In this document: positions 13,248 to 43,226 of the stretch, in pieces
Position numbering within the stretch: the stretch's first letter is position 1
Layout: every line of letters starts with the position of its first letter
Source: a virus
IMG/VR virus record: IMGVR_UViG_3300025006_000005
Length of the DNA: 43,226 bases
Direction: 5' to 3' (one strand)
Notes under the pieces: model-generated
Databases searched by the model: none
Told to the model about the DNA's origin: nothing
Seen by the model: the letters and a program-made list of their open reading frames with translations, nothing else
Position numbers and translations under genes: made by a program

Positions 13248-14093
13248 CTATGAGCGAATTGTTTCAATCAGCCGCGCCACGGCGGCTTGGTCGAGGACAG
13301 CGTCGCGCATGTCCGTCGGGACAGCGTCGCGCATGCCCCCTGCTGCCGCCTCGAGCATCCGGCGCCGCTCGGAACGCGGAACGCCTTGCTGCGCGAGGAG
13401 CGCATCCAGTTGCCGCTTCGCGGCGATCTCCGGGCGCAAGCGAGCGCTCGCTCCCCCTTCATTCTTCGGAGCCTCGGTCACGGCGTCCGCAAAGCCCTTC
13501 GCTACGGCGTCCTTTGCCGTCAGGAAGGTCTCTGCATCCATCAGCGCCGTGATGTCCGCCCGCTTCTGGCCGGTGCGGGCCTCATAGATGTCCGTCATGG
13601 CCGCATCGATCTGGCCGAGCGTCTGCGCCGCGTCCGTCAGGTCGTGACGGTTTCCGATCACCACGCCCCAGGCGTTATGGATCATGATGAAGGTGCCAAG
13701 ACCCATATTGATCTGGTCGCCGGCCATCGCGATGATCGAGGCTGCGGAGGCAGCAATGCCCATGACCTCGATTGTCACCTTGCCCTGGTGCTGGACAAGC
13801 TGATTGTAGATCGTCAGGCCCTCGAAGACGCTGCCGCCGGGCGAGTTGATCTTGACCGTCACATCGGCATTGCCGATCGAGCGCAGCGCCGCGTTCATGC
13901 GCTGCGCCGTGAAGCCGCCGCCGGTCCACATATCCTCGCCGATCACGTCATAGATCGTGATCGTGTTCGCATCCGACTTTCCGGCATCGGCCGAAAATTC
14001 CGTCCACCGCGCCAGCGCATCCGAAGGCACGTCCCACGAATAGCCCTGCGGTGCTGCGAGCGCCTTTGCTTCAGGAAGCTTGCGAAGGGTCAT
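13248..14093 (-). CDS. Prohead protease (ClpP/S14-like)
   Basis: 281 aa. VKINSPGGSVFEGLTIYNQL...GIAASAASIIAMAGD is typical of ClpP-type head maturation proteases. Confidence 0.88.
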   Translation of the reverse strand: MTLRKLPEAKALAAPQGYSWDVPSDALARWTEFSADAGKSDANTITIYDVIGEDMWTGGGFTAQRMNAALRSIGNADVTVKINSPGGSVFEGLTIYNQLVQHQGKVTIEVMGIAASAASIIAMAGDQINMGLGTFIMIHNAWGVVIGNRHDLTDAAQTLGQIDAAMTDIYEARTGQKRADITALMDAETFLTAKDAVAKGFADAVTEAPKNEGGASARLRPEIAAKRQLDALLAQQGVPRSERRRMLEAAAGGMRDAVPTDMRDAVLDQAAVARLIETIRS

Positions 14094-15351
14094 TCTGACC
14101 TCCCTGCGGGTCCGATGCAGATTTGCCAGCCGTGTTCGGCGGCGGATAGAAGATGTCGCCGCCTTCGCGAGGGTTCATGTCTTCCACCGCGCGGATCTCG
14201 TTTGGACTGACGACACCCCATTGCAGCGCCTGGACATGCGCTGCCCAACGGGTCTTGATGTCGCCACGCACCAGCGCGGCCCGATTGAAACGGAAATAGA
14301 GCTCGGCATCCGTCTGCGGGATCAGATCGCGGTTGCCCGCCTCCTCCCACATCGTCAGGTGATCTTCGAGCGTATAGGCGACAAAACCCAGAGACTGCTG
14401 CTCGATGCCGGTGCCCCAGCTGGTCGACTTGTCGGTGTCGCCGATCATGTGCGGCGGCACACCGAAGAACATGGCGATATCCGACCGGGAAAACTTGCGG
14501 CTTTCGATCCACTGCGCATCGTCGGCCGTCATCGTCAGCCGTTCGGCGGTGATTCCGTCCTCGAGGACCATCCACGCGCCGGCACGATCGCCGCCCATGC
14601 GGAAATCATCCATTGCCTCGCGCAGATTCGACCGGCCTTCCGGCCCGAGCCTCTTGTCCGATTTCAGGTAGCCGCCGACATTCAGCCCGTTCTTGAACTG
14701 CGTTGCGCCGTGGCGTTCCTCGGCCAGCGCCAGCCCAATCGTCTCGCGGGCATAGGTGATTGGCGTGACGCCGGTAATTCCGTCGAGCGTAAGGCCCGCG
14801 AGATGCAACACCTCGTTCTGCCGGAAGACCTGGCTGGTCCCATCCGTGCGGGTCCACGTGAACTTGAGCGTCAGGTCGGGGTTCTGTTCGATCCTCACCC
14901 TGTCAGGGTGTAGCGGGATTAGCTCCTGCACGCCCCTTGTCCCTGGCACCTTCAGGGCAACGCCGTTGCCGCGCAGCAGCACGTGGGCCTGCATCATTCG
15001 GCGAAACTGGCTGGGCGTCTGCCAGCGATTGGGCTTGCGGCGCACGAGCTGCCACAGTTGCGAGTCCGAGGCGTCCTCCCGCGTCCGGGCATCGATCCTG
15101 CGCTTGACGTGCAAAGGCAGCGTCGCGACGGCTCCTGAAATGATCCGCACGCACGCATAGACCGCCGCCACCTTCATGGCAGTCGTGGCGTTGACCTGCT
15201 GTCCGGACCAGGACGCGCCATCCTGGCCGCGCAGGAACTCGTCAAGCTCCCATGAATTGGCGATGACGCGACCACCAGACGGGCTTTGCGTGGCAGCCTG
15301 CGGCGCCGGCGTTCTGTCACCGCCGCGGAACCAGTCGAAAAGTCCCATCAT
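14071..15351 (-). CDS. Portal protein, HK97 family
   Basis: 426 aa, between TerL and the protease. Typical portal sequence: ..VYACVRIISGAVATLPLHV.. and FGVPPHMIGD. Confidence 0.92.
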   Translation of the reverse strand: MMGLFDWFRGGDRTPAPQAATQSPSGGRVIANSWELDEFLRGQDGASWSGQQVNATTAMKVAAVYACVRIISGAVATLPLHVKRRIDARTREDASDSQLWQLVRRKPNRWQTPSQFRRMMQAHVLLRGNGVALKVPGTRGVQELIPLHPDRVRIEQNPDLTLKFTWTRTDGTSQVFRQNEVLHLAGLTLDGITGVTPITYARETIGLALAEERHGATQFKNGLNVGGYLKSDKRLGPEGRSNLREAMDDFRMGGDRAGAWMVLEDGITAERLTMTADDAQWIESRKFSRSDIAMFFGVPPHMIGDTDKSTSWGTGIEQQSLGFVAYTLEDHLTMWEEAGNRDLIPQTDAELYFRFNRAALVRGDIKTRWAAHVQALQWGVVSPNEIRAVEDMNPREGGDIFYPPPNTAGKSASDPQGGQNDPSQAS

Positions 15352-15358
15352 GTCATCC

Positions 15359-17089
15359 CTAGACGAACGCGACTTTTTCGGTCGCGTAGATGGAGGTCTT
15401 GGCGACCCCTTCCGGATTCCAGCTCATCAGGATCGCGGCGCAGAACATCGCTATCGCCGGATCGATCTTGGCGCGGCCGGCTGCCTGCTTCGTCGCCATG
15501 TTTCCGTTGCCCTTGACCTCGATCTTCACGTTGCCGACGACCCAGGCCATCATGGCCGATCCGTCGTGGCTGATCGTTCCATCCGAGAGTTTGTGCTCGA
15601 GGCCCCAAAGGGCGGGAGACAGCGCCGGGCCCTGGCGCAGCCGGTGCAGCATTGCTCCATCGATACCTTCGATCGCCATCGCGTCGACGAAGGCCGCAAT
15701 ATTGTTCGGATCGAAACCGATGGCGTTCTTTTCCGGCAGCAGCCCCGCCTCGCGCAGCCGAGCGGCAATCGCCGCGATCCGGGTGACATATTCGCTGACC
15801 TCGCAAAAGCTCAGCGAACCTTCCTCTTCGAAATCCTTCAGCCTCGAGGCGATCTCAGGCCGGATCTCGAGCACCTTCGGATGGGCGAAGGCATGGCACC
15901 ATACCAGCCAGCGCCGCGTCACCTTTTCCCGGCCGATCACGCACACGCCGAAAAGATCATCGAGGCCGCCGCCATCTGCGCCAAGCACCGCCACATCGCA
16001 GCGCGCCATCAGGTCATCCAGCGAGGCAAGTGTCGGATCGGCACGCAGCGGCCAATAGTCGGCACCGCGCCAGCTGTCGTCGCCGAGGCCGACGCCTATC
16101 TCAATATTGAGATGCTGGCTCGCCCAGATCTGCTCGGCTTCCTTGCTGACGCGCCCGTTGTTCTCATAATCGGCGAGCAGCCGTTCCATATCGATCGAAC
16201 GGCCGAGATTCGGCAGCAGAAGCGGCCAGTTCTTGCGGTCGCGCCAGAACGCTTCGTCGCGCTGGCGGTCTTCCGGGAACTCATATAGCACCGGCAGCAT
16301 GATCGGCGACGCGCCGCCCTTTCCGTCGCGGATCGCCCTCGCCTTCTTCAGTTCCGATTTCCAGATGCCGGCAGGCTGTTCGTCGGACTGGGTCGTGATC
16401 ATCAGCAATTGGCCGCCCTGCCTCGTGATGCCGCCACCGCGGATCTGCTGCATCACAGCAGGCGCCTTTGCCTTTTTGCCAAGCTCATGCACCTCATCGA
16501 CGATCGTCAGCACGGGGATCTCGCCGGTGACAATCGACGTATCGAAGGTCTTTACATCGATCGCCGTGCCCGTCTTGTGCCGCGTCACGCGCTTCAAATT
16601 GTCCTGGACGTGGAAAATCGCCTTCAGCTTTTCATCGAGACGAATCATTCCCTGCGCCTGATCGAAGCATCGCTGCGAGATGTTCTGGCTTGGCGCGACG
16701 ATCAGCATCTGGCGGTTAGGTGCCTCTTCCATGAACAGCGCGGTTAGTCCGAGCCCGGCGACATACGTCGTTTTCGAATTTTTTTTCGGGATCATGCACA
16801 GCAGCTCCCAGACGAGCCGCTGCTTGGTCTCCGGATCCTCGCTGGCGAGAAAGGCCACGAGCATGTCGCGGAACCAGTCGCCGCATGCCTCGGCCATCGT
16901 GGGGGTGCCCGGGACGTCCGGCAGACGAAGACGGTTGAAGAAGGCCAGCGCCTTGACCGCACGCGCCTCGTTGACCGGGACGTCGGCCATCGGAACGCGG
17001 CCGGACCTGATCCGCTCCCACCAGTCCGGGCAGGCGAAACGCGGCAGTGCTTTAGCAGTGTCCGGCATCATGGCCGCCGACGCGCGCAC
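15359..17089 (-). CDS. terL: Terminase large subunit
   Basis: 576 aa. Walker-A-like PKKNSKTT and TIVDEVHELG (Walker B), plus a C-terminal nuclease region. The start may be a few codons downstream (MMPDT). Confidence 0.92.
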   Translation of the reverse strand: MRASAAMMPDTAKALPRFACPDWWERIRSGRVPMADVPVNEARAVKALAFFNRLRLPDVPGTPTMAEACGDWFRDMLVAFLASEDPETKQRLVWELLCMIPKKNSKTTYVAGLGLTALFMEEAPNRQMLIVAPSQNISQRCFDQAQGMIRLDEKLKAIFHVQDNLKRVTRHKTGTAIDVKTFDTSIVTGEIPVLTIVDEVHELGKKAKAPAVMQQIRGGGITRQGGQLLMITTQSDEQPAGIWKSELKKARAIRDGKGGASPIMLPVLYEFPEDRQRDEAFWRDRKNWPLLLPNLGRSIDMERLLADYENNGRVSKEAEQIWASQHLNIEIGVGLGDDSWRGADYWPLRADPTLASLDDLMARCDVAVLGADGGGLDDLFGVCVIGREKVTRRWLVWCHAFAHPKVLEIRPEIASRLKDFEEEGSLSFCEVSEYVTRIAAIAARLREAGLLPEKNAIGFDPNNIAAFVDAMAIEGIDGAMLHRLRQGPALSPALWGLEHKLSDGTISHDGSAMMAWVVGNVKIEVKGNGNMATKQAAGRAKIDPAIAMFCAAILMSWNPEGVAKTSIYATEKVAFV

Positions 17090-18730: not shown

Positions 18731-20084
18731 AGCTTTCCGCCCTCTCCGCATCGCTTCCGCCCCTGATCGCCGCCTCGAATTCGCCTAAGCCCGCCGGTCC
18801 GCCCTTTGGCGCGTAGAACACCTCGCCGCGCTCGAAGTCGGGCAGCCACGGCCAGCCCCGCGCCGCGAACGCCTCCCGCCACGCCGCGAGCACCGCGCTT
18901 GTCACAGGTATCGGCTCCATCGCCGCCTTCAGCCCATGCCAGCGCTCGCCGAACACGGCGCCGCCCTTTTGGCTGCGCAGCGCTCGCCATTGCCACACCC
19001 GCTCCCATGCCGCCCGCAATGCCGGGTCCGACAAGAGAGGCCGTTCACGCAGACGCGCCGCCGCTGCCTCGTCGCTCGGTCCCGCCAGCAGGTCCGCGAA
19101 GAGCTTCGCCATGCCGACGGGGCCCGCCATCGCCGCCCAGCCATCGGGCTTTGCCTGTTCCTCGGGCCTGGCGCTTGCCGCCTTGCGCGCCTCGAGCCGC
19201 CGCATGATCGCCGGATCGAGCCCGTCCCACGCCCTGTCCCGCAGGAACACGCCGATCGGCATCGGCTTCTTGCCGCGATCGGCGATGTCGAGGAGGTAGG
19301 CGTCGCGCCAGCGCTCGGCAGCCTCACGGTCGGCCAGCGACAGCGCAGCGAACTGCTTGGCGATCCAGCGCAGCGAGGTCGTGTCCCAATCCGCCCATGC
19401 TCCGGCGACGAACCCGCGCCCCGAGCAAAGCCGTTGGACGCGCTTCCGAAACGCCGCCGTCTGCGGATCGTCGGCTGCCCCGCTCGTATCGTCGGCAGCG
19501 TCCCCGTCGGCGTTCTGGTCCTGCCCTTCCTGCCCGACCGCGCGCGCGCCCTCTCTCTCAAGGGCGGTAATGGGAGGATCTATGGGAGGTATATATAAAG
19601 ACCTACCGGAACTGGTTGCCGGTAGGCTTTGCGTCTGGTTGCCGGTAGGCTCGGCGTCTGGTTGCCGGTAGGCCCTACCGGCAGAATTTGCCGGTAGGCT
19701 CGATTCGCCCCCCGATTCACCCCCCGATTCTGCCCCGGATCCCGCTCCGGATTCGCCCCCCGTTTCGCGCTTCAGGTTCCGGCAGCGTTCCGCCCCGTCG
19801 CTGATATTGGCGGCGAGATCGAGCACGATCCAGTCGGCTTCGCGCACGCCTTTTTCGCCATGCTGGCGCTGCCGCCTGATCAGGCCCCAATCCTCGAGCC
19901 GCTGCAGCCATTCGCGCACCGTGCGCTCGGAGACCTCCGCCGCCTCGGCAAGATCGGACTGGCTCGCCCAGCCCTTGATCAGCCCTTCGGGATCGGCATA
20001 GTCGGCAAGGCACATCAGGATCGACTTCGCCGAGGGCGAGCCGAGCCGCTGGTCCTTCGCCCAGGCCGACGCTTTCCAGCTCAT
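18714..20084 (-). CDS. Replication initiator-like protein (N-terminal winged helix; iteron origin inside the gene)
   Basis: 456 aa. The N-terminus MSWKASAWAKDQ..AKSILMCLADYADPEG..SERTVREWLQRLEDWGLI is typical of phage O/DnaD-like wHTH proteins. Iterons lie within the central low-complexity linker. Confidence 0.65.
   Translation of the reverse strand: MSWKASAWAKDQRLGSPSAKSILMCLADYADPEGLIKGWASQSDLAEAAEVSERTVREWLQRLEDWGLIRRQRQHGEKGVREADWIVLDLAANISDGAERCRNLKRETGGESGAGSGAESGGESGGESSLPANSAGRAYRQPDAEPTGNQTQSLPATSSGRSLYIPPIDPPITALEREGARAVGQEGQDQNADGDAADDTSGAADDPQTAAFRKRVQRLCSGRGFVAGAWADWDTTSLRWIAKQFAALSLADREAAERWRDAYLLDIADRGKKPMPIGVFLRDRAWDGLDPAIMRRLEARKAASARPEEQAKPDGWAAMAGPVGMAKLFADLLAGPSDEAAAARLRERPLLSDPALRAAWERVWQWRALRSQKGGAVFGERWHGLKAAMEPIPVTSAVLAAWREAFAARGWPWLPDFERGEVFYAPKGGPAGLGEFEAAIRGGSDAERAESYDQAC
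19588..19700. repeat. Putative origin: AT-rich GGTATATATAAAGAC plus 3 exact 16-bp iterons CTGGTTGCCGGTAGGC at 23-bp phase, a 4th partial copy and a palindrome GCCGGTAGGcCCTACCGGC
   Basis: Iterons at 19612-27, 19635-50 and 19658-73, with TTGCCGGTAGGC at 19688-99. Inverted CCTACCGG at 19602-09 and 19674-81. Confidence 0.7.
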
Positions 20085-21922
20085 TCCGCCGCCTCCAGCA
20101 ATTCCCCGTTCGACCGCGCGCGCTCCTTCGGCGCGGCATCCGCCATGATCGCGGCGACCTCCGCCTGCATCATCGCTACCGAGACCGCATTGCCGATCTG
20201 CTTGATCTGCTCCGTCTTCGTGCCGCCGAACTCGTAGGCCTGTTCGTCGGTCGTGAACCCCATGGCGGCCGCGAGCTCGTGCGGCTCCAGCATGCGGAAG
20301 AGGATGTCGTAGGTTGGCTCGGAGATCGGCTCGACCAGGTCGACATGGCCGCGCGCAGCGATCGTCGGGGCCGGAGCGCCGACATCGTGCACCCGCGGCG
20401 CCTGACCCGCCCGCTCGCCGTGCTGGGCCGTGATGAAGGCAAGCTCGCCGCGATTGGCCCCGGTAATGGTTGGCAACGGCTCGCCGGGTCCGCGCGCGCG
20501 GTCTCCATCTCCGGCATGCGTCACCGGCATGACGATGGCGAATTCGCCGCCCTTGGCCGTCGTCAGCGTCGGGATCGGCTCCGCCACGTCGCGCGGTCCG
20601 TTGCCGCCCTTCGAGTGCGTCACGGGAACCACGATGCCGAACCGGTCTTTCGTCGTGACAGTCGGCAGCGGCTCGTCTCCGCTCTGCGCCGCCTGAGTCA
20701 TGCCGTAGTAGGAGGTGATGAGCAGGTGCGAATGCTTGGCCACCTGCGTCGGTGCCGGCTCGTCGACCGAACGCGGCGCGCCCTCGGCATGGCGCGACAG
20801 CACGAACGGCTCGACCACCCCGAAATTGCCGCCTCCGGCATGGATCGCCCCGATCGGCTCGTCGATGCTGCGAGACCGACGCGAATGCGGGTCGGCTTCG
20901 CTGGCATCGATGCCGTGAGCGGCCGACATGACGAATGGTGCAACGATGGCGAGACCGCCGTCCGTGGTGATAGTCGGCAGCGGAGCGTCATCGCCCGAAA
21001 CGCAGAGTCCGTTGGCGCGCGGCATCGCCGTGCGAACAACCACCGGCTCGGCAAGCCCGATATGGCCGCCGTTCGCCGCAATGGTCGGAAGCGGCATGTC
21101 GATCCCCTGCGCCGCCATGTGGTTGCGCAGGATGACGAGATAGGGCTCCGGCCAGCCGAACTTCACCGCCCCGGCATGGATGCGCGCCAATGTCTTGGCC
21201 GCCAGCGGCTTCTTGCGGTTGAGGATCGATTTGCCCTTGATGGACCAGTCGATGATCTCGCGCGCCGGCCGCCACGGCTTCATGTCGCCGAATAGGTCGG
21301 ATGCGCCCTTCGGACCGTGCGTCAGCGGCGCCCAGCGCACCGTCCGCTTGTCGCTCCTCGCCTTCAGGATGAAACGCTGCCGCGTCGTGGCGTCGCCATA
21401 GTTCGCCGCGTTGAGCTTGCGCCATTCCGGATCGAAGCCGAGCCGCTTCAGCGTCTCGATCCAGGCATGGAAATATTCGCCCTTGCGGCTCGCGACCGGC
21501 TTGCCCGTGCGATGATCGACAGGCCCCCATCCGGTAAACTCCCAGACGTTCTCGATGATGATCCGCTTGACGCGAAGCTCCGTCAGCCAGGTGACGATGT
21601 GCCATGGGTCCGAGCGCTGCTGGTCCGAGGTGGGCTTGCCGCCGCGCGCCACGGAATGGTGCGTGCATGTCGGCGATGCCATCAGGAGGTCGAGATAGCC
21701 CTCGGGCACGAGCAGATGCGGGCGCACCGTCGCGATATCCTGCACATAGTGCCGCGCTTCCGGGTGGTTGCGCCTGTGCGTCTCGATCGCCGTGGGCCAA
21801 TGGTTGACGCAGACGAGCTCCATTTCGAGCCCGAGCGAGGCGAGCGCCCGCGCGCAGCCCGTCGACGAGCCGCCCGCGCCGCACAGAAGGTCCGCTACAA
21901 GGATCTTGCGCTTGCCCGTCAA
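20081..21922 (-). CDS. DNA (cytosine-5) methyltransferase with eight tandem TRD-like modules
   Basis: The start was trimmed to the TTG at 21922 (TTGA overlap with the upstream stop). Motif I DLLCGAGG, motif IV SPTCTHHS, motif VI IIIENV, motif VIII TRQRFIL, motif IX FRMLEPHELAAAMGF, motif X QIGNAV. Confidence 0.85.
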   Translation of the reverse strand: MTGKRKILVADLLCGAGGSSTGCARALASLGLEMELVCVNHWPTAIETHRRNHPEARHYVQDIATVRPHLLVPEGYLDLLMASPTCTHHSVARGGKPTSDQQRSDPWHIVTWLTELRVKRIIIENVWEFTGWGPVDHRTGKPVASRKGEYFHAWIETLKRLGFDPEWRKLNAANYGDATTRQRFILKARSDKRTVRWAPLTHGPKGASDLFGDMKPWRPAREIIDWSIKGKSILNRKKPLAAKTLARIHAGAVKFGWPEPYLVILRNHMAAQGIDMPLPTIAANGGHIGLAEPVVVRTAMPRANGLCVSGDDAPLPTITTDGGLAIVAPFVMSAAHGIDASEADPHSRRSRSIDEPIGAIHAGGGNFGVVEPFVLSRHAEGAPRSVDEPAPTQVAKHSHLLITSYYGMTQAAQSGDEPLPTVTTKDRFGIVVPVTHSKGGNGPRDVAEPIPTLTTAKGGEFAIVMPVTHAGDGDRARGPGEPLPTITGANRGELAFITAQHGERAGQAPRVHDVGAPAPTIAARGHVDLVEPISEPTYDILFRMLEPHELAAAMGFTTDEQAYEFGGTKTEQIKQIGNAVSVAMMQAEVAAIMADAAPKERARSNGELLEAAE

Positions 21923-22446
21923 TTCCCGCCCCCATATCCGTTCAGCCAGGCCATGAATTCCGCCTTCAGCGCCTTCCAGCGCGCAGCCGCTTCGCCGTCC
22001 GTGTTGAGATGCTTGCGCGAGCGGATGCCCAGCGCCGTCCGCAAGAGCGCCGCGGTCGCTTCCGCGTCGGCAGGCAGATCCGCCTTTGCCCGGTCGGCGA
22101 GGAATCGCCCCCATGCCGGCCGCGCGCAGGCCATCGCCGCCTCTGCCGCGTAGTCCTTCGGAGCCTCTGTCCCGGCCTTAAGCTTCGCGCTCGCGCGCTC
22201 GCCGGGCTTCTGTTCCCCGTCCGCCAGCAGCGCCAGCAGAAACCGCAGATCCTCCGGCGCGTTGGCGACGAGCTCGATTTCGTCGGGGGTCGCCCGCTCG
22301 AAGGCGCAGAGCCGCGCAACCGGACGGCCCGCCGCGTCCAGCACCTCCAGCGCCGTCGCCGGTCCATCGGCCACGATCACCCATGACGCCGGCCCGATCG
22401 CATCGAGCCTCGACCTGATGCGTTCCAGCCGATCGGCCCCCGTCAT
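21919..22446 (-). CDS. Hypothetical protein
   Basis: 175-aa ORF coupled on both sides. No motif recognised. Confidence 0.5.
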   Translation of the reverse strand: MTGADRLERIRSRLDAIGPASWVIVADGPATALEVLDAAGRPVARLCAFERATPDEIELVANAPEDLRFLLALLADGEQKPGERASAKLKAGTEAPKDYAAEAAMACARPAWGRFLADRAKADLPADAEATAALLRTALGIRSRKHLNTDGEAAARWKALKAEFMAWLNGYGGGN

Positions 22447-23676: not shown

Positions 23677-24212
23677 GCCTGCTCACCCGTCAGCACGCTG
23701 AATCGATCGAGGAAGGCGCACTCTGCCTGGACCGGATTCCAGAACCTCAGCTTGATACCCATCGGCTCGGGCGAGAAATCCCAATCCGCCGCGCACGGGC
23801 CCATGTTCTGGGCGCGCTCGTCGCCGAGGATGCGTCCATCGGCAATCATGACGGCGTCGGGAATCTGCGGCGGCAGGCCGAAGCGTTCGGCGATCAGCGC
23901 GAGACCTCGCTCCTCCGCCTCCACATAGCCGGTCAGGTGCGGCTTGATCGGCCGGGCGAGGTCGACGAGATAGGCCTCCCATGCGTCATGCAGCAGCGCC
24001 CAGAGCATATGCTCGCCGGCGACGTGATGAGACAGCAGCACACTGTGCTCCGCCACGGAGTAAAAGCGCAGGCAGTGCCCGGAGTATCGGCATTGGTGCG
24101 AGAGCGCGTGCGCGATATCATGGATGTCGATATCCTCGATCCTCGGATCGAGCGGCCAGAATTGCCGCCCCGTATAGGTCTGTATCCAGCCGCCGCGCCT
24201 TGCCACGTTCAT
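23673..24212 (-). CDS. HD-domain phosphohydrolase (YfbR-like)
   Basis: 179 aa, with IAHALSHQCRYSGH, YSVAEHSV and LLHDAWEAY. Confidence 0.75.
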   Translation of the reverse strand: MNVARRGGWIQTYTGRQFWPLDPRIEDIDIHDIAHALSHQCRYSGHCLRFYSVAEHSVLLSHHVAGEHMLWALLHDAWEAYLVDLARPIKPHLTGYVEAEERGLALIAERFGLPPQIPDAVMIADGRILGDERAQNMGPCAADWDFSPEPMGIKLRFWNPVQAECAFLDRFSVLTGEQA

Positions 24213-24532
24213 GCCCCGACTCCCTGCCCACTTGACCCTGTTTCACGTGTTGCAACCTCTGTAACCGTCTGTTTTTCCATGTCCTTGCGGATATCCGCGA
24301 GGCTGCGCCGCCGCCGCTTGGCACTCGAAAGATAGGCGAATGGATCGAGGCCGAGCCGCTGGCAAAGCGCCAGCATCGAAGCGGCCGAAAGCGGATTGGC
24401 GTTGACCGCCCGCGACAGGAGCGCCTTATTGAGCTCCGGGCATGCGCGCACCGCCGCATTGAACGAGGAAAACCGTTCGGCGAGTTCTCGCTCCACGTCC
24501 TCGGCAAACCGTTCGCGATCGATCTCAGGCAT
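24209..24532 (-). CDS. HTH (XRE-like) DNA-binding protein
   Basis: The start was trimmed to the ATG at 24532. Contains ..LNKALLSRAVNANPLSAASMLALCQRLGLDPFAYL. Confidence 0.6.
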   Translation of the reverse strand: MPEIDRERFAEDVERELAERFSSFNAAVRACPELNKALLSRAVNANPLSAASMLALCQRLGLDPFAYLSSAKRRRRSLADIRKDMEKQTVTEVATRETGSSGQGVGA

Positions 24533-24872
24533 GTCCGTTCTCCTCACGCGCCGCAGAGCCAGTCTCTGTCCCGCCTTTAAGCGGCAAGCCGCTGGCGGCC
24601 CCGTGTTGCCCGCCATCGTCCGTCAGGAGCACGCCGCGGTCGCCCGGCACGATGCCGAGCGCGCCCCACAGCCGCGCGCGATCGCGCCCATTGTCGAGCC
24701 GGCCCATGAACGCCAGATCGAACGCGGTATTGGTGACGCCCGCCGCCTTGCGGATCTGCGCCTTGGCCTTGCGCGTCGCATCCATCAGCGCGCCGCCCGA
24801 AAGCCCGTGTGTCGCGAAGGCGACCCGGCCGCGCAGGAAGAAGCGGAGCATGGCGGGCGAAAAATCAGGCAT
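24525..24872 (-). CDS. Hypothetical protein whose C-terminus is encoded by a palindromic repeat element
   Basis: The start was trimmed to the ATG at 24872 (MPDFSPAMLRFF...). 115 aa. The last ~25 aa (..HGAASGLPLKGGTETG..) are read from element copy 24562-24602. Confidence 0.5.
   Translation of the reverse strand: MPDFSPAMLRFFLRGRVAFATHGLSGGALMDATRKAKAQIRKAAGVTNTAFDLAFMGRLDNGRDRARLWGALGIVPGDRGVLLTDDGGQHGAASGLPLKGGTETGSAAREENGHA
24562..24602. repeat. Palindromic interspersed element, variant 1 (inverted copy)
   Basis: GTCTCTGTCCCGCCTTTAAGCGGCAAGCCGCTGGCGGCCCC is the reverse complement of 28834-28875, differing by 2 substitutions and 1 indel. Confidence 0.85.
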
Positions 24873-26505
24873 CGGCGGATGTTCCTGTCGCCAGCTCTGC
24901 TGCCTTGGCACAAAAGGCCGCCCATTCGGATACGATGGCCTTGCGTGCTGCCGCCTCTGTCCGGGCGCGTTTGTGGGGACCGGCGACCTTTCCGAGCCAA
25001 TAGGAATAGATCCAACCGTCTGCTGCTTCGGCCGGCGGGAATATGGCGCCGACCTCCAGCGGTCCGGCCATCGCCAGGATGCGGCCACGCGGAGGCATCG
25101 CCTGGTGCCAAGTCAGGCGCAGTGTAGCGGTTTGCGACGCGTCGCCGGCATGGGCGGCAGGACGCTCTTCCGCACCGCTTGTATCCGGCCGGAACCACGG
25201 CCGCTTCAGGCCCGTTTCCGTCCCGCTCTTAAGCTCCCTGCGGTCGCTGGCGGGCCCCTGGGCCTCCCCACCGCTGTTCTCCCCCCTTGAGAGGGAGATG
25301 TCCGGAAGGACAGAGGGGGGTGAAGCGCTCCCCCCATTGCCGTCGCCGGCCTCATACCCCCACGCATCCCAGCCCGGCCGGGCGCGGCGGGCGAACATCT
25401 CCAGCCGCGCCATTGCCGGATAGAGCCGCTCGATCGTCTCGGCGAAAAAGTCCGGCTTGGCCGAATGCGGCCCCTTGCGCTCGCGGCGGACAGTCTCCGG
25501 CTGCGATCCCGGCAGAGGCGCCGCCACGTCCCCGCGCCGGCCGATCAGGAGGAGCTCATGCCGGTCGCGGCCCCAATAGCCGGTGCCGGCGACTTCCTTG
25601 TCCCAGATCCAGTGATGCACATAGGCAAAACCCCACGCCCGCATGACATCGAGCGCCTCCGACAGCATGGGGTTGATCGCCCAAAGGAACAGCACCGCGT
25701 CCGCCGTCGCGGGATCGCCGAGCTCGGCGAACAGCGCCGCGATCTCCGGCGTCGTCATTGTCGGGTAGTGGTTTTCCGCGCTCTTCTCGCGCCCGGTTAC
25801 TTCCGAGCGCACGCCGAAACGCCAGGGCGGATCGGCATAGATGACTGGATAGCGGCGATCGAGCCGCCTCGGCGCGGCCGTGCCGCCATCGCCCGCGATG
25901 CGGCGCATGTTTTCCAGCCGCTCGTCATGACGCCGGCGCTGACGTTCGGCGCGAATCGCTTTTGCCCGCGCAACGATCTCGCGTTCCTCGCGGTCGAGGA
26001 TTTCGCGCTGCGTCTCATGTTCGAGATCGGAGAGCGCTTCGCCCGCATGGACGGTCACGCGTCCCTCGCGGATCGCCTCGACCAGTTCGCCCGCGCCGCG
26101 CTCCTGGATGCGCCGCGCCGCCCTCACGGCGCGCTCGGATATCGACAGACGCTCCGCTGCCTTCCGGGTCGGCAAATTTGCCGCCCCTGCCGTTACCTGG
26201 TTGATGCCGACATCCCAATCGACGATCCGCGCGGCGATCATCGCGCGCTGGCTTTCGGTCAGGTGGCGGCGATGCAGATTGTGCGACAGCACGAAGTTGA
26301 GCGGATCGTCACCCTCGTATTCGACGAAGCGTGGTTCGACCTCGGCAAACCGGCAGGCCGCCAACCGGTTGCGTCCGTCGAGCACCATGCCGTCCAGCAG
26401 CACGATCGGAACCCGCTGGCCGAACGTCACGATGTCGTCGGCGAGCTCGCGCAGTTCGCTTTCGGGCAGCATCGGGAACAGTTCAGCCAGCGGGTGCGGT
26501 TGCAC
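24865..26505 (-). CDS. ParB-like nuclease domain / MT-A70-family N6-adenine DNA methyltransferase, with a repeat-borne linker and extra C-terminal module
   Basis: 546 aa. ParB-N: RVPIVLLDGMVLDGRNRLAA. MT-A70: IYADPPWRF, HYPTM, VLFLWA and HELLLIGRRG. Repeat elements encode aa ~391-431, and aa 470-546 look like a separate module. Confidence 0.85.
   Translation of the reverse strand: MQPHPLAELFPMLPESELRELADDIVTFGQRVPIVLLDGMVLDGRNRLAACRFAEVEPRFVEYEGDDPLNFVLSHNLHRRHLTESQRAMIAARIVDWDVGINQVTAGAANLPTRKAAERLSISERAVRAARRIQERGAGELVEAIREGRVTVHAGEALSDLEHETQREILDREEREIVARAKAIRAERQRRRHDERLENMRRIAGDGGTAAPRRLDRRYPVIYADPPWRFGVRSEVTGREKSAENHYPTMTTPEIAALFAELGDPATADAVLFLWAINPMLSEALDVMRAWGFAYVHHWIWDKEVAGTGYWGRDRHELLLIGRRGDVAAPLPGSQPETVRRERKGPHSAKPDFFAETIERLYPAMARLEMFARRARPGWDAWGYEAGDGNGGSASPPSVLPDISLSRGENSGGEAQGPASDRRELKSGTETGLKRPWFRPDTSGAEERPAAHAGDASQTATLRLTWHQAMPPRGRILAMAGPLEVGAIFPPAEAADGWIYSYWLGKVAGPHKRARTEAAARKAIVSEWAAFCAKAAELATGTSADA
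25214..25258. repeat. Palindromic interspersed element, variant 2 (inverted copy)
   Basis: GTTTCCGTCCCGCTCTTAAGCTCCCTGCGGTCGCTGGCGGGCCCC is the reverse complement of 28896-28940, differing by 2 substitutions. Confidence 0.85.
25278..25336. repeat. Second type of G/C-run palindromic element (TCTCCCCCCTTGAGAGGGAGATGTCCGGAAGGACAGAGGGGGG...CTCCCCCC)
   Basis: Internal inverted repeats TCTCCC/GGGAGA and CCCCCC/GGGGGG. From memory, it resembles dispersed intergenic repeats of Rhizobium/Agrobacterium genomes. Confidence 0.5.
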
Positions 26506-26508
26506 GGA

Positions 26509-27432
26509 TCAGGCCTCCGGCGCGCCTTCGAAGGTCGGAAGGCTCGTGGCCCCGCCGGCGTCCTTCAGCGCGCGGCCGACTTCCTCGCGCAGGAACGCCT
26601 CCCAGCGATAGAGCTGGTAGAACCACTTGATATCGCCGGATGCGATCCGGTAGCGCAGCCGAGCCGGGATCCGCACCGGCGGCCCGTCGATGAAGGCCGG
26701 AACCGACAGCATGAAGATTCCGGGCACTGCGATCTTTTCGCCCTTGGCGTTCTGGTGTTCCTCGGAAAATTCGATCTGTCGTTCGCCCGTCTGCAGGCGA
26801 ATGCCCTGCTTGGCGCGCGCCCCGACGAAGACCTCGAGGTGGCGCGACAGTTCGATCAGTTCCGAAGGCGTGGCGAAGGTTTCGCGGAACAGCCGCTCGA
26901 ACTCGCTTCTTTCGCCGTCCGTCGGCGCGGCGAGCTCGGCGGCATGCTCTTCGATGAAGGCCGCGAAGACCGGCTGTTCCATCGCCTTGCCGTCAAACCC
27001 TACCCAGGCCTTGAACTCCTCCGTCAGCGGGAAATCATAGACGATGCGGTGCTGCCCGAAGCGCGCCTCGCCGCTCGCGTCGTCATAGTCGATCACGGCC
27101 GTCAGCTTCGGCTCCGGCCAGCGCGTCGCGCCGAAGATCGCCGAGCGCTCGTCCTTGTGGCGATTGACCAGCGCGCAGAAACTTTCGAGCGTCTCTGCCT
27201 TCGCCGTTCCCTCGCGCCGCGCCGGCGCCTGGCGATAGGTCTCGATGAGATCGGCGAGCGAGGATGCGCGCTGCGCCTTGCGGTCGAACAGCAGCGGGAC
27301 ATCGACCGGCAGGCCAAGGCCGAGACCCGACGTACCGATACGCACCACGGTGGCGCCGGACGCTTCTTCCGCGAGTGTCTTCACAAGGGAAATGCCGTGT
27401 CCGTCGACGGCTGCCGCGTCATGCTGTGCCAT
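26509..27432 (-). CDS. DUF2303 (YfdQ-like) family protein
   Basis: 307 aa with a strong SD (AGGAGA). The family assignment is from memory of YfdQ-type prophage proteins. Confidence 0.6.
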   Translation of the reverse strand: MAQHDAAAVDGHGISLVKTLAEEASGATVVRIGTSGLGLGLPVDVPLLFDRKAQRASSLADLIETYRQAPARREGTAKAETLESFCALVNRHKDERSAIFGATRWPEPKLTAVIDYDDASGEARFGQHRIVYDFPLTEEFKAWVGFDGKAMEQPVFAAFIEEHAAELAAPTDGERSEFERLFRETFATPSELIELSRHLEVFVGARAKQGIRLQTGERQIEFSEEHQNAKGEKIAVPGIFMLSVPAFIDGPPVRIPARLRYRIASGDIKWFYQLYRWEAFLREEVGRALKDAGGATSLPTFEGAPEA

Positions 27433-27479
27433 GGGTTTCTCCTTTCATGGCGTTGAATCGTCTCGAGTCTTTGGAAGGA

Positions 27480-27821
27480 TCAGGCGCTTTCTTCCTCGCG
27501 TTCGTCGCGCGAGCGCGGTCCGGGGAACATGTCGATCTGGTTGGGGTGCTCGACAGAGAGCGCGCCATCGACGGCCCAGAACGGCGTCTTCATGAAGCGC
27601 GCCGTCTCCGGCAGCTTGACCTTCACGCTCGGATCGATATCGATGCGTCCGAGCTCGTATTTGAGCGTGATCTTGACGGTGATCTCGGCCTTGCCGCTGT
27701 CGGCGGCCATCGTGTCGAAGGCGTCGACCACATTGGAGAGCTCTTCATCGAGCCTGCGCGAGAATTCTCCCCGAGAGAGAAGCCCCAGCATCTCGCGGAA
27801 TGACCGCAATACCCTGCTCAT
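27480..27821 (-). CDS. Hypothetical early protein
   Basis: The start was trimmed to the ATG at 27821 (MSRVLRSFREMLG...). 113 aa. Confidence 0.5.
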   Translation of the reverse strand: MSRVLRSFREMLGLLSRGEFSRRLDEELSNVVDAFDTMAADSGKAEITVKITLKYELGRIDIDPSVKVKLPETARFMKTPFWAVDGALSVEHPNQIDMFPGPRSRDEREEESA

Positions 27822-28019
27822 CGGATTTTTCCTTTCACCTAATACCGACATGGCCCCGCCGGCGCTTCGCTTTGACGAGCTCGACCGCACGGTCGATCGC
27901 CGCGTAAAATGTCGAATTCGTCGAGGAAGTCATTTCCGCCCCGCGCCGCCCCGGCGCCCGCGCTTAGTTGACTTGCCGCCCCGCTACGCGCGGCTCACCC
28001 CTGCTCTAAAACCTGTCAT

Positions 28020-28490
28020 TCACGCCGCCTCTACCTTCGCCTCGAATTCGTCCAGCGCCGCGCGGAGCTCGGCGATTTCCTTGCGCAGGTCCTTTTTCTC
28101 GCGCGGGCTGATCGCCCCATCCTCGAGCGTGTCGATCGCCCTGAGCTCGACGTCGCGCCATTCGGCGACGACCCGTCTCAGATCAGCGAATGTCGGCTTG
28201 CCGACGCCGATGCGCGCCTCGATCCGCTCCAGCCGGTAGCCTTGCGCCATCGCCAATGCGCCGGTGATGATCGGCTGGCCGGCCGCCAGATCGAGGTCGA
28301 GCGCGATGTCGACCGGGCAGTGGCGGTCTTCCTCCTGGATGACGTGGTATTCGCACAGGCGCTTTTCGTTGACGCGCGTGATGCCCGCCGCCGCCACCGC
28401 CGTTCCGAAAAAGCGGATCGCCCGGAACACCGCCGCCTTGAGTGCGCGGCGCTGGTCCTCGGTCGATGCCCGGCCCGGGTTCGCGCTCAT
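28020..28490 (-). CDS. Possible phage regulatory protein (CII/CP76-like)
   Basis: 156 aa. The architecture resembles CP76-type regulators (..EDGAISPREKKDLRKEIAELRAAL..). The call is weak. Confidence 0.4.
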   Translation of the reverse strand: MSANPGRASTEDQRRALKAAVFRAIRFFGTAVAAAGITRVNEKRLCEYHVIQEEDRHCPVDIALDLDLAAGQPIITGALAMAQGYRLERIEARIGVGKPTFADLRRVVAEWRDVELRAIDTLEDGAISPREKKDLRKEIAELRAALDEFEAKVEAA

Positions 28491-28609
28491 GCCCGCACCG
28501 CCGATTGTTCGATCGCCGCCACGAGATTGTCGACGCAGATCCAGCGGGCGGAAAGATCCTCGTCCAGCCCCTCCATCACTGAGAGGAACCGCTCGAATGT
28601 CGTCTTCAT
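28487..28609 (-). CDS. Small ORF (40 aa), hypothetical
   Basis: Hand-translated: MKTTFERFLSVMEGLDEDLSARWICVDNLVAAIEQSAVRA. ATGA-coupled at both ends. Confidence 0.4.
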   Translation of the reverse strand: MKTTFERFLSVMEGLDEDLSARWICVDNLVAAIEQSAVRA

Positions 28610-29079
28610 CGCTTTCCCCTCGCCGGATTTGCCCGATTTGAATCCGCGTGACGCGCCACGTCGCACCCGGCTAGATCGCCGGCATGACGCTCGATCTCGT
28701 CCGCAAGCATGCCCAGGCCCACCGCCTCCGCCCGGGCGCAGACCGCCGCCGCGATCCAGTCCGCCGGCGTGCGGTCGTCATGCAGCGCGACGAGCTGCAG
28801 CAGCATCATCGTCGCGTCGGAGAGCTCCACACAGGGGCCCGCCAGCGGCTTGCCGCTTACAGGCGGGACAGAAACCCGGTCCGCCAGCGACCCAAGGGGC
28901 CCGCCAGCGACCGCAGGGAGCTTAAGGGCGGGACGGAGACTCTCCCCGCCAGCGGCTTGTCCATCGGCCATTATCGGATCCCGCTGCATGACGCGGATCG
29001 TCACCAGCCCGTCGACGGATATCCGTTCGAGCTCACGCACCAGCCGCGCCCGGCAGTCGGGTTGTCCCGCCGCGCTCAT
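28606..29079 (-). CDS. Hypothetical early protein interrupted in-frame by a cluster of palindromic elements
   Basis: The start was trimmed to the ATG at 29079 (ATGA overlap). 157 aa. The central ~42 aa (GESLRPALKLPAVAGGPLGSLADRVSVPPVSGKPLAGP) are encoded by repeats 28834-28960. Confidence 0.5.
   Translation of the reverse strand: MSAAGQPDCRARLVRELERISVDGLVTIRVMQRDPIMADGQAAGGESLRPALKLPAVAGGPLGSLADRVSVPPVSGKPLAGPCVELSDATMMLLQLVALHDDRTPADWIAAAVCARAEAVGLGMLADEIERHAGDLAGCDVARHADSNRANPARGKR
28834..28960. repeat. Tandem cluster of palindromic elements: variant 1 (28834-28875), variant 2 (28896-28940) and partial copies
   Basis: Variant 1: GGGGCCCGCCAGCGGCTTGCCGCTTACAGGCGGGACAGAAAC. Variant 2: GGGGCCCGCCAGCGACCGCAGGGAGCTTAAGGGCGGGACGGAGAC. 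The 5'-part CCGCCAGCG(A/G)C recurs at 28881-28892 and 28946-28957. Confidence 0.85.
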
Positions 29080-29327
29080 TCCGCGGCCTCCTTCGCGCTC
29101 GGTTCGGGCCGGGGAATGCTGTCGGGCCATGCGGCCCCGGCCGGCCAGTTGTCGGATAGCCATTGCATGGCGCGCTCGAATATGTGGGTCGTCACGTCGC
29201 CGCCCGATGCCACATCGTCGAGCTTGGAACCGCGATTGAGCACCAGTTGCGAAACGCGCGAGCGGCTCAGGCCGCGCGCCCGTCCGAAGGAATCGGTCAG
29301 ATGGAGGAGTTGCTCGCGCATCGTCAT
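29076..29327 (-). CDS. Cro-position early-left first gene (small putative regulator)
   Basis: 83 aa from the ATG at 29327, divergent from the repressor gene. No clear SD. The function is inferred from position only. Confidence 0.45.
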   Translation of the reverse strand: MTMREQLLHLTDSFGRARGLSRSRVSQLVLNRGSKLDDVASGGDVTTHIFERAMQWLSDNWPAGAAWPDSIPRPEPSAKEAAE

Positions 29328-29342
29328 GGCGCGGCACGATGT

Positions 29343-29410
29343 GGACAAATGACCACGTTGTCAAGGCCAATTGTCCGCGTTCCGTTTTTTGCTGCCGGGG
29401 ACAATAATCC
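29343..29410. promoter_or_regulatory. Divergent immunity control region: three 12-bp operator-like sites and a leftward promoter (CTTGACA on the minus strand at 29359-65)
   Basis: O1 29343-54 GGACAAATGACC (reverse complement GGTCATTTGTCC), O2 29365-76 GGCCAATTGTCC, O3 29399-410 GGACAATAATCC. AATAAT at 29403-08 lies 9 nt before the cI ATG. Confidence 0.55.
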
Positions 29411-33696: not shown

Positions 33697-34049
33697 CGCT
33701 TTCGCAGGTGTTTTCGATGGACGAGGCCGCCGAACGGCTGCATATCTCGCGGCGCCAGCTGCAGGAGATCGTCAAGCGCCATCCGCACTATGTGCCCAAC
33801 GGCCAGCGCAAGCTCTTCACCGAAGCCGATCTCGCCGCTATCCTCGCCGGCCTGCGCGAAGAGAGAGAGCCATGCCCCTCAGCCTCAAACCGCCCCGCCC
33901 GGGCAAATCGCCGAACTGGACGATCCGCGGCACCTATCTCGGCGTCCGCCTGGACGAAAGCACAGGCACTCCTGACGAAGCCCTCGCGCGAAGGATCCTC
34001 AAGGTCCGAGAGCGTGAAATCGAACGTGGTCGCACTGCCGCCCCGATAA
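33693..34049 (+). CDS. Excisionase-like HTH (MerR/Xis type); the ORF runs 178 nt into the integrase gene
   Basis: GTG start (GTGA overlap). HTH: MDEAAERLHISRRQLQEIVKRH. The Ser/Arg-rich tail is encoded in an alternative frame of int. Confidence 0.55.
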   Translation: MTLSQVFSMDEAAERLHISRRQLQEIVKRHPHYVPNGQRKLFTEADLAAILAGLREEREPCPSASNRPARANRRTGRSAAPISASAWTKAQALLTKPSREGSSRSESVKSNVVALPPR

Positions 34050-34921
34050 CCGCCGATGCCCCGGTCGGGCCGAGTTTCGTCGAAGCCGCTGTCGCCTATA
34101 TGGAGGCGACCGGGCCCGATCCGTTCCTCGGGCGGTTCGACGCGGCGGCAGGCAAATGGGCGTCCGGCCTCATTCCCCATTTCGGCGACAAGCCTTGCGC
34201 GGAGATCCGCCAGGCCGAGATCGATGCCGCCGCCATCGCGCTCTATCCCAACGCCACGCCGATGACGCGCAACCGGCAGGTCTATACGCCGGCGTCCGCA
34301 GTGCTCAAGCATGCCGGCTTCGATTTCAAGATCCGCCGGCCGAAGGGCTGGCGCGGCAAGGCGCGGGTCGACTGGATGCAGCCCGAGCAGGCATTCCGGC
34401 TCATGGCCGTCGCCAAGGCAGCCGATCCCGAATTCGGCATCTTCCTCGCCTTCCTGCTCTATACCGGCTGTCGCGTTGGCGAGGCGCTCAAGCTCACCTG
34501 CGACCGGCTGACGATCGGCGAGGCCTTTGCCTATCTCGCCGAGACGAAGAACGACGATCCGCGCGGCATTCATCTGCCGCCGTTCCTGGTGGCAGAGCTT
34601 GCCAACCATCCGCGCGGCCTAGATCGCGGCCGTTCGAAGGTCTTCCGCTTCGTCAAGTGCGGCCGGCTTTACACCTTGATGCGCGAGGCGAAGGAAAAGG
34701 CCGGCGCGGATGTCGCCTTCGTCACCTTCCACACGCTGCGCCACACCTGGGCGACGTGGATGCGCCGCTATGGCCGGCTCGACACGCGCGGCCTGATGGC
34801 GACGGGCGCATGGCGCGATGCCGCCTCCGCCGCCCGCTATGAGCACGTCGTCGTCAGCGAGGAAGCCCGCAAGGCAAACCTTCTGCCGACGCCGACCAAG
34901 GCGCGCCGCCGCGCTCGCTGA
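33872..34921 (+). CDS. int: Tyrosine integrase
   Basis: 349 aa, with LLYTGCRVGEAL, FHTLRHTWATWM and a C-terminal ...AARYEHV (catalytic Tyr region). Lies adjacent to attP. Confidence 0.92.
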   Translation: MPLSLKPPRPGKSPNWTIRGTYLGVRLDESTGTPDEALARRILKVREREIERGRTAAPITADAPVGPSFVEAAVAYMEATGPDPFLGRFDAAAGKWASGLIPHFGDKPCAEIRQAEIDAAAIALYPNATPMTRNRQVYTPASAVLKHAGFDFKIRRPKGWRGKARVDWMQPEQAFRLMAVAKAADPEFGIFLAFLLYTGCRVGEALKLTCDRLTIGEAFAYLAETKNDDPRGIHLPPFLVAELANHPRGLDRGRSKVFRFVKCGRLYTLMREAKEKAGADVAFVTFHTLRHTWATWMRRYGRLDTRGLMATGAWRDAASAARYEHVVVSEEARKANLLPTPTKARRRAR

Positions 34922-43216: not shown

Positions 43217-43226
43217 CCGATCACCC
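43100..43226. repeat. Terminal 127-bp exact duplicate of 1..127
   Basis: Identical string at both ends. Confidence 0.95.

Follow-up and report, generated by a model that had tools for sequence, protein, structure and literature searches.

A modular hairpin repeat of Hyphomicrobiales genomes within the early genes of a temperate phage

Rickettsia palindromic elements (RPE; Ogata et al. 2000) are described in two later accounts as palindromes of ~100–150 bp that encode a conserved peptide of 30–50 aa and lie in frame in genes (PMC10969869, PMC3184786). Repetitive extragenic palindromic (REP) sequences carrying a GTAG or CGTC tag also occur inside genes, where those for replication and repair are favoured (Di Nocera et al. 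2013, PMC3733652), while Correia elements (CREE) land in Neisseria prophages and the BRE of Betaproteobacteria extend or interrupt open reading frames (ORFs) in frame (PMC3184786). Mycobacterial interspersed repetitive units (MIRU) appear, in the portion of PMC3184786 that cites Supply et al. 1997, as direct tandem units of 46–101 bp at the gene junctions of operons. Here we describe a hairpin-forming element of 45–54 nt that lies within early genes of the IMG/VR virus record IMGVR_UViG_3300025006_000005, a stretch of 43,226 nt that was analysed as a whole and is called the window below. Our analyses revealed that its copies belong to a family of non-autonomous repeats that form hairpins and are native to the genomes of Hyphomicrobiales. 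Genes tolerate the element in their tails, at N-termini and within linkers and loops, and it can turn up at a new site as a block of 54 nt. The element is a chromosomal repeat of the host lineage and is not phage-specific.

How does this element compare with the described families? The first-pass annotation of the window had named RPE as the precedent, and they are indeed the best analogy for in-frame translation in either orientation. Both are short palindromic repeats of an alphaproteobacterial lineage that lie between genes and, strikingly often, in frame in unrelated genes, here dapE, uvrB, a primase, an MT-A70 protein, GcrA-like and DnaD-like proteins, and orfB, the methylase gene and orfD of the window. 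Both are tolerated at surface loops, linkers or termini, and for neither has a mobilising enzyme been identified. Unlike the ~100–150 bp of RPE, the unit comprises 15–18 codons; it is modular, with exchangeable loops and head-to-tail tandem arrays, and all its matches here come from Hyphomicrobiales, which are free-living, or from their temperate phages. No sequence relation to RPE is evident from the descriptions compared.

With REP sequences the element shares GC-rich imperfect palindromes of tens of nucleotides, variable loops, a multi-copy and mostly extragenic distribution near gene ends, chiefly downstream of coding regions, a fraction of copies inside ORFs, notably those for replication and repair (here uvrB, primases, methylases and DnaD-like genes), and some copies that supply or displace stop codons. 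It differs in having no conserved GTAG/CGTC tag: the consensus by the stem is CTGTCCCGCC, or CTGCCCCGCC on the reverse strand, and CGTC stands beside the stem only in the window's two copies of loop variant 2 and in one metagenome-assembled genome (MAG; locus L002). Its arrays run directly head to tail, in contrast to the inverted pairs of REPINs and BIMEs, and no RAYT gene was found within the 8-kb loci by tblastn with a RAYT sequence as query. MIRU resemble it in forming direct tandem units, for which the three tandem copies at the 3' end of a gene in viral locus L114 are the counterpart here, and in that the open frames of their units overlap the stop and start of the neighbouring genes; here, ATGA or ATGnnTGA overlaps are kept, as seen in the ATGCCTGA overlap of orfB and in a Sinorhizobium copy placed right after ATGA. 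MIRU differ in phylum and sequence, are essentially intergenic and, in the portion of PMC3184786 concerned with them, are not reported in phage genomes or enzyme domains. CREE and BRE are likewise small repeats of host genomes that reach prophage regions (CREE) or lie in frame in ORFs (BRE), but they are unrelated in sequence and host; CREE are MITE-like, with terminal inverted repeats and a TA duplication, and PMC3184786 describes no systematic in-frame occupation of phage replication genes. Miniature transposable elements with inverted repeats (MITEs) are defined by terminal inverted repeats of 15–30 bp, a length of 70–300 bp and a target-site duplication, whereas the window family has an inverted repeat of 6–7 bp, a unit of 45–54 nt and no duplication at its filled and empty site.

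The element thus works like an RPE or an intragenic REP and belongs to neither family. Literature searches in a limited library returned no description of this family, nor of such elements systematically occupying phage genes. Because in-frame REP, BRE and RPE and Correia elements in prophages are known (PMC3733652, PMC3184786, PMC10969869), what the phage setting adds is a matter of degree rather than of kind. The initial claim that nothing comparable had been described in a phage genome gives way to the precedent of CREE in prophages, and agrees with these limited searches as regards the systematic occupation of phage genes.

Copies in the window and anatomy of the element

The pattern CCGCCAGCG-N8-18-CTTAMRRGCGGGAC matches the window exactly four times, at 24568–24598 and 25220–25253 on the minus strand and at 28839–28869 and 28901–28934 on the plus strand, and matched none of 100 shuffled sequences; the 9-mer CCGCCAGCG occurs elsewhere in the window only 7 times, counting both strands. 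The four full copies proposed by the first-pass annotation are therefore present, in the places and orientations it gave. The copies of variant 1 at 28834–28875 and, inverted, at 24562–24602 differ by 2 substitutions and 1 indel, and those of variant 2 at 28896–28940 and, inverted, at 25214–25258 by 2 substitutions in 45 nt; a repeat search extends the latter pair to 49 nt at 94%. These differences agree with the original count, both variants have the termini and the CCCGCC/GGCGGG inverted repeat in common, as had been noted, and the partial copies said to flank the cluster at 28.9 kb were found as TCCGCCAGCGACC and CCCGCCAGCGGCTTG. The copies, including a degenerate fifth one, are as follows (orfB, orfD, orfE and the methylase gene are minus-strand genes of the early operon, listed further below).

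28831..28878, plus strand: full copy of variant 1, loop GGCTTGCCGC; antisense to orfD; encodes RVSVPPVSGKPLAGP; nhmmer E=2.6e-8
28879..28894, plus strand: partial 5' copy between both full copies, with TCCGCCAGCGACC at 28879–28891
28892..28942, plus strand: full copy of variant 2, loop ACCGCAGGGAGC; antisense to orfD; encodes ESLRPALKLPAVAGGPLG; nhmmer E=5.4e-10
28943..28960, plus strand: partial 5' copy of variant-1 type, with CCCGCCAGCGGCTTG at 28944–28958
25214..25262, minus strand: full copy of variant 2; sense, in the linker of the ParB–MT-A70 fusion; encodes QGPASDRRELKSGTETG
24562..24605, minus strand: full copy of variant 1; sense, in the C-terminal tail of orfB; encodes HGAASGLPLKGGTETG
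22164..22203, minus strand: degenerate fifth copy, …CCCGGCGAGCG…GAAGCTTAAGGCCGGGACAGAGG; in the variable linker of orfE; family profile E=0.0055

The four full copies had been assigned to four coding regions. The real genes number three (orfB, the ParB–MT-A70 fusion and orfD), or four if orfE with its degenerate copy is counted. The copies occupy a gene end, an interdomain linker and a variable N-terminal region, and none lies within a conserved domain. The four peptides quoted at the outset are correct; predicted peptides that span the element, in the window phage or in pMl3 of S. medicae ml49, would read MRFSAPPLSS…, GPASDRRELKSGTETG and VSVPPVSGKPLAGP. Short peptides encoded by the element include PASGLPLKGG, PASDRRELKSG and SxPPxSGKPLAG, and PASGLPLKGG and SAPPLSGKPLAG are among those that recur. 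It is true of every copy, as initially observed, that its containing minus-strand ORF reads through without a stop, an outcome to be expected in two of three frames: over 77 distinct copies, the open frames number 150 of 231 in sense and 152 of 231 in antisense, and the third frame of each orientation is closed solely by the TAA within the CTTAAG core. Since four of the six frames of the element are open, read-through by itself is weak evidence.

The unit measures 45–54 nt and recurs in tandem with a period of 45–47 nt. A conserved 5' part, (A)GGGG(C/T)CC(C)CGCCAGCG, and a conserved 3' part, CTTAAGGGCGGG(A/G)CAGA, enclose a variable centre of 8–20 nt. The predicted fold comprises an outer stem of 6–7 bp (CC(C)CGCC / GGCGGG(G)), a 3-bp AGC/GCT step with a four-base TAAG bulge, which together form the invariant CTTAAG, an exchangeable apical mini-hairpin, usually self-complementary (GCGGC/GCCGC, GGCC/GGCC, AGGC/GCCU, GGGC/GCCC and others), and short conserved tails, GGGG(C/T) … CAGA. 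The loops do not come in lengths divisible by three. There are two stem subfamilies, CCCGCC…GGCGGGA and CCCCGCC…GGCGGGG; they have loops in common, including those of both window variants, which makes the family modular. Where one subfamily has a G·A mismatch, the other has a C-G pair, a compensatory change, and the stem of the fifth copy has changed on both sides, from CCCGCC/GGCGGG to CCCGGC/GCCGGG, with pairing kept. Compared with loop-only shuffles, the 34 distinct loops have a mean folding z of -1.32, and 23 of the 34 fall below -1. The hairpin appears to be under selection.

Distribution and mobility in chromosomes, prophages and viral contigs

A scan of one genome per bacterial species yielded 21 non-chance chromosomal loci in unrelated contexts, spread over at least 7 Hyphomicrobiales genomes; the pattern matches L001 and L007 were judged from their sequence to be chance. 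Carriers are Oricola cellulosilytica, O. nitratireducens, Aurantimonas marina, A. marianensis, Jiella endophytica, Phyllobacterium leguminum, an Ahrensia MAG and two other MAGs, often with several loci in a genome and, at a locus, several copies arranged head to tail among other repeats. Most chromosomal copies are intergenic and lie, by a rough gene call, 4–100 nt from a gene end. In metagenomes, the scan returned a single contig (103 kb) with four tandem copies, three of which share one loop while one has the loop of variant 1. About 30 IMG/VR viral contigs carry the element (32 loci), among them members of the second stem subfamily with the same loops, and the highest load is 9 copies in a contig of 24.8 kb. 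The variant-1 loop GGCTTGCCGC is also found in Oricola (L010), a MAG (L017), the metagenome contig (L106) and many viral contigs, and the variant-2 loop ACCGCAGGGAGC in viral contig L121. In GenBank phage records the element was not found, and among PLSDB plasmids four query designs matched only pMl3, a phage-plasmid of S. medicae. The proposed search of other phages and Rhizobiales chromosomes has thus turned up many chromosomal loci and viral contigs, so the similarity is not confined to this contig, and no homologue was found that carries one of the peptides encoded by diverged DNA.

Beyond the window, in-frame copies lie in enzymes and replication proteins. In dapE of P. leguminum, a copy accounts for ~18 residues ahead of the KGSxxFLITxDEEG strand that solved DapE structures lack. 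Two MAGs have an in-frame copy in the N-terminal extension of uvrB; in one of them, L002 (3205–6205), uvrB has a second copy in its C-terminal extension, and a third follows immediately on its stop. In viral contigs, a copy splits a D5_N primase domain in frame, others lie in frame between DUF7146 and Toprim, in a loop of an MT-A70 domain and in a GcrA-like linker, three tandem copies end a DnaD-like protein, and the C-terminus GVPASDRRELKGGAN of a further protein equals window variant 2.

Two side observations concern these loci. The viral contigs IMGVR_UViG_3300043260_000093 (L109, L114) and 3300043268_000020 (L122, L133), of 23–25 kb, hold 8–9 variant-1 copies each, a density near one in 2.7 kb; among them are perfect triple tandems that repeat every 45 nt. 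The uvrB of L002 seems to be frameshifted in the assembly around 4487–4563.

Direct evidence of mobility comes from a filled/empty polymorphism in a group of Sinorhizobium prophages, one member being pMl3 of S. medicae ml49, a circular 'plasmid' of 50 kb. The empty site, GGAATGACGACGCTCTCC, is present in ten prophages that are otherwise near-identical, and their protein begins MTTLSRQVLV…. The filled site has exactly 54 extra nt (18 codons) just after the ATGA junction, with one antisense copy forming codons 2–19 of a 68-aa ORF that begins at this junction and is annotated by the NCBI pipeline as protein WP_127577313.1. No target-site duplication is evident at the filled and empty site. One of the filled copies has suffered a 3-nt deletion that keeps the frame, and another locus holds a diverged copy. 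Together with the dispersed chromosomal and viral loci and with homologues that lack the segment, this polymorphism substantiates the original proposal of the recent mobility of one palindromic element.

Host genes and the early operon

Bases 1–127 are identical to 43100–43226, and this 127-nt direct repeat at both ends indicates that the window is a circularised assembly of ~43,099 bp; its G+C content is ~64%. The genome is that of a temperate tailed phage of Rhizobium-type bacteria. In its minus-strand early/replication operon, neighbouring genes overlap as ATGA or ATGnnTGA, with essentially no intergenic DNA. The features of this operon that bear on the element are given here.

24528–24872, minus strand: orfB, MPDFSPAML…DDGGQ followed by an element-encoded tail
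24212–24532, minus strand: orfC, starting at ATG 24532 behind a GAGGAG ribosome-binding site, in agreement with the starts of homologues
24865–26505, minus strand: gene for a ParB-like and MT-A70 methyltransferase protein; domains, a linker with two repeats and a C-terminal domain of ~80 aa
25262–25338, minus strand: a second, unrelated Rhizobiales intergenic repeat, adjoining the variant-2 copy in the methylase linker; peptide SPPSVLPDISLSRGENSGG
28609–29079, minus strand: orfD, with an ATGA-coupled start at the upstream ORF 29076–29348
21919–22446, minus strand: orfE, a two-domain protein conserved across the phage group, with the degenerate copy in its linker

At its start, orfB overlaps the methylase stop (ATGCCTGA); at its other end, the stop of orfB overlaps the start of orfC in the same manner. 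Seven orfB homologues stop 1–7 codons past DDGGQ, with the stop overlapping the start of the next gene; the orfB of the window has 24 residues after DDGGQ, mostly encoded by the element, and keeps its ATGCCTGA overlap with orfC. ORF 24209–24616, initially a candidate for the fourth host gene, was rejected as an over-extended orfC on account of the ATG at 24532, the GAGGAG and the starts of the homologues.

The methylase ORF encodes 546 residues, and its MT-A70 domain ends at residue 385, near 25351, according to Pfam. There follows a linker of 75 aa that holds two repeats and then the C-terminal domain of ~80 aa (24868–25122). Among 80 methylase homologues, 66 stop 3–13 aa past the MT-A70 domain, and in 78 the next gene abuts or overlaps the methylase stop. 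The repeat that adjoins the variant-2 copy occurs at 643 places in 158 plasmid or chromid records of Rhizobiaceae and Phyllobacteriaceae (Sinorhizobium, Rhizobium, Shinella, Phyllobacterium, Nitratireductor), where it sits between operon genes, e.g., xdhB/xdhC. Low GC3 and a lack of homologues in word searches had led us to consider the post-methylase stretch as possibly non-coding, a view dropped when an exhaustive HMMER search identified the C-terminal domain as a real family with stand-alone proteins of ~80 aa. The same domain is fused C-terminally to MT-A70 and NPPY methylases (P0046, P0050, P0052), and P0046 likewise has a repeat-like linker. Given the stand-alone and fused homologues, and given that the window has CTG where the stand-alone proteins have their initiator Met, and hence no start codon, the window methylase is most likely a genuine fusion judging from these comparisons, its linker consisting largely of two host-type repeats.

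The C-terminal domain, for which Pfam has no model, may be a methylase accessory domain. P0052 (561 aa) combines an orfD-like domain (VVLSGPALAVLALVAAHDG…AEAIGLPGLAD), a repeat-like linker, an NPPY methylase and the C-terminal domain of ~80 aa, joining as one polypeptide what the window has as separate early genes. The methylase tails of related prophages contain other repeat peptides (…SDTCERAAAESGxTAGETAP…, …AGEVSRxxDAADRQRP…) with the terminal AVPA-stop retained; such peptides were seen in methylase tails and orfD-like N-termini of L026, L027, L033 and L037, and the methylase ORF of L037 continues for 1045 residues. The overall picture suggests that several repeat families colonise the same junctions.

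orfD is composed of an N-terminal part of 41 aa with a coding-like GC pattern, the element cluster of 42 codons, which comprises two full copies and two partial ones, and a C-terminal domain that is conserved (LSDATMMLLQLVALHDD…). Its homologues (L026, L028, L030) conserve the C-terminal domain only, their N-terminal parts differing in length and sequence.

In IMG/VR, the best relatives of the phage have methylases ~75% identical in protein sequence, nothing closely related to orfD is present there, and a megablast search of GenBank phages with window positions 22–31 kb gave no match. Pfam scans of 30 window ORFs revealed no recognisable transposase domain, a tRNA/attP origin was considered and no tRNA was found in the window, and Rfam gave no match at gathering score across its whole length. 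The remaining landmarks are listed below; the Pfam scans also identified a C5 methylase and a lytic transglycosylase.

11964–13244: HK97-type capsid, structural gene
14071–15351: portal, structural gene
15359–17089: large terminase, structural gene
33872–34921, plus strand: tyrosine integrase

The copies of the element are confined to the early/replication module at 22.1–29.0 kb, and the modules for structure, lysis and integrase have none; tolerance or the exposure of single-stranded DNA may lie behind this. As listed, the C5 methylase ORF (20081–22114, minus strand) starts at 22114, which would give a 195-nt overlap with orfE (21919–22446). Its Pfam match starts at residue 73, and the true start is therefore probably near 21920, abutting the stop of orfE.

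Origin and persistence of the copies

How did a chromosomal repeat come to be translated within phage genes? We favour, at a probability of roughly 0.7, the explanation that a non-autonomous hairpin repeat of the host lineage entered the phage and that its in-frame survivors are passengers. The element would spread among chromosomal sites, and into temperate phage DNA during lysogeny or replication, mobilised by a hairpin-recognising enzyme of the cell that acts in trans and is perhaps, in view of the missing target duplication, of HUH type. Because neither a transposase nor a target-site duplication was found and the hairpin is conserved, the agent is most likely an enzyme acting on single-stranded hairpin DNA. 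The early operon offers no intergenic space, so that every tolerated insertion joins an ORF. Selection would then retain insertions with a length that is a multiple of three and that preserve the downstream stop/start overlap, and the survivors would land in C-terminal tails, after start codons and in interdomain linkers, to be translated as short, presumably unstructured peptides. The in-frame character of the copies is best read as the product of this survivorship filter and of four open frames in six, not as a property of the insertion step. Most likely, the copies are neutral or mildly parasitic passengers, with longer linkers and tails as a side effect; at the methylase, they may have helped to join two genes into one.

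Several observations weigh against this explanation. The elements bunch in the early module at 22–29 kb and beside gene junctions, which could mean function or target preference rather than tolerance alone. Whole elements do not fold significantly better than shuffles (z from +0.06 to -2.3, in a GC-rich context), and in the folding that the first-pass annotation had proposed as a check, a signal came from the loop-restricted shuffles only. The Sinorhizobium megaplasmids in PLSDB contain no counterparts of the prophage copy, and for the Sinorhizobium lineage a host origin of the element is presumptive. The tblastn search with a RAYT sequence returned nothing significant within the ~8 kb examined around each chromosomal match, and our counts refer to such loci, not to copies per genome. 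For the insertion sites of the window itself, no close relative with an empty site was found, and for this reason we infer insertion there from distant homologues; the suggested alignment of host proteins with homologues bears out the absence of the segments and does not extend to the window's own exact empty sites.

We also consider, as a tentative and less probable extension, that an undescribed modular element of 45–54 nt travels between the chromosomes of Hyphomicrobiales and temperate phages, the latter serving as cross-genus vectors, and actively remodels early-operon proteins. The vector role is suggested by the Sinorhizobium prophages that carry the element while the Sinorhizobium replicons in PLSDB do not. 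Remodelling would consist in the erasure of stop/start junctions, as in the methylase fusion, the supply of linkers and the provision of shared junctions for module exchange.

Might the hairpins instead be retained for a function of their own? They could act as cis-acting RNA or DNA signals, such as stabilisers, attenuators or RNase processing sites, that tune the polycistronic early operon, with translation being incidental. Such roles have been shown for REP and proposed for MIRU, and they would fit a hairpin kept through compensatory changes and structured loops, copies at or near gene junctions both in the window and in the Sinorhizobium prophages, the many chromosomal copies 4–100 nt from gene ends, the restriction of the window copies to one 7-kb early module, and the adjoining unrelated repeat at 25262–25338, a classic intra-operon intergenic repeat. 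We nevertheless regard this explanation as unlikely, because the copies occur in both orientations and in translated regions, where ribosomes would unwind them, including mid-gene linkers and domain loops; near-identical prophages exist with and without a copy, the folding z-scores of whole elements are weak and Rfam gave no match. A role at the level of DNA, as sites for a DNA-binding protein, as a methylase-linked CTTAAG site or as junctions for module exchange, seems to us quite improbable. The strongly conserved arms and palindromic CTTAAG core around a variable centre speak for it, one site adjoins the gene slot that varies most within the lineage, the one downstream of the methylase, and identical 45-nt blocks in unrelated phages and chromosomes would serve as recombination substrates. 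However, copies are spread across hundreds of kilobases of unrelated chromosomal contexts, dapE and uvrB included, for which a phage-specific binding role cannot account; no candidate binding protein was identified, and no recombination breakpoint maps to an element. The two orientations, the mid-gene positions and the filled/empty polymorphism fit such a role poorly as well.

Two further readings were considered. The first, in which the segments represent a peptide module, ancestral or horizontally shuffled, with the linker motif GPAS…LKGGTE and with selection at the level of the protein, draws on the same sense-frame peptide in dapE, uvrB, the methylase linker, the orfB tail and L121. The opposite orientation of the same DNA yields unrelated peptides, however, most copies are intergenic and some contain stops, e.g., the TGA in loop ACGAATGAAATGAGGAG, loop lengths are not multiples of three and homologues exist that lack the segment; the antisense and intergenic copies effectively refute a peptide module. 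The last reading, that the similarity is an assembly artefact or chance in GC-rich DNA, has in its favour the 127-nt terminal overlap of the window, a circular assembly in the style of metagenomes. It is refuted by the shuffles, which lead one to expect zero pattern matches by chance, and by the independent occurrence of the element in dozens of isolate genomes, MAGs and viral contigs. A host-lineage repeat carried along in phage genes is thus the explanation that we retain.

For the annotation of Rhizobiales prophages, the finding means that C-terminal extensions, odd N-termini and 'fusion' ORFs are often repeat-derived, with PASGLPLKGG and SAPPLSGKPLAG as markers. It widens the range of selfish DNA within protein-coding genes from Rickettsia and scattered REP sequences to free-living Hyphomicrobiales and, in a systematic way, to their temperate phages, and the filled and empty sites of the Sinorhizobium prophages, with WP_127577313.1 as the product, provide a concrete case of small repeats entering compact phage genomes. 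It also suggests a route by which repeats may build linkers and gene fusions. The phage-vector and fusion-making aspects would, if true, be of greater interest still.

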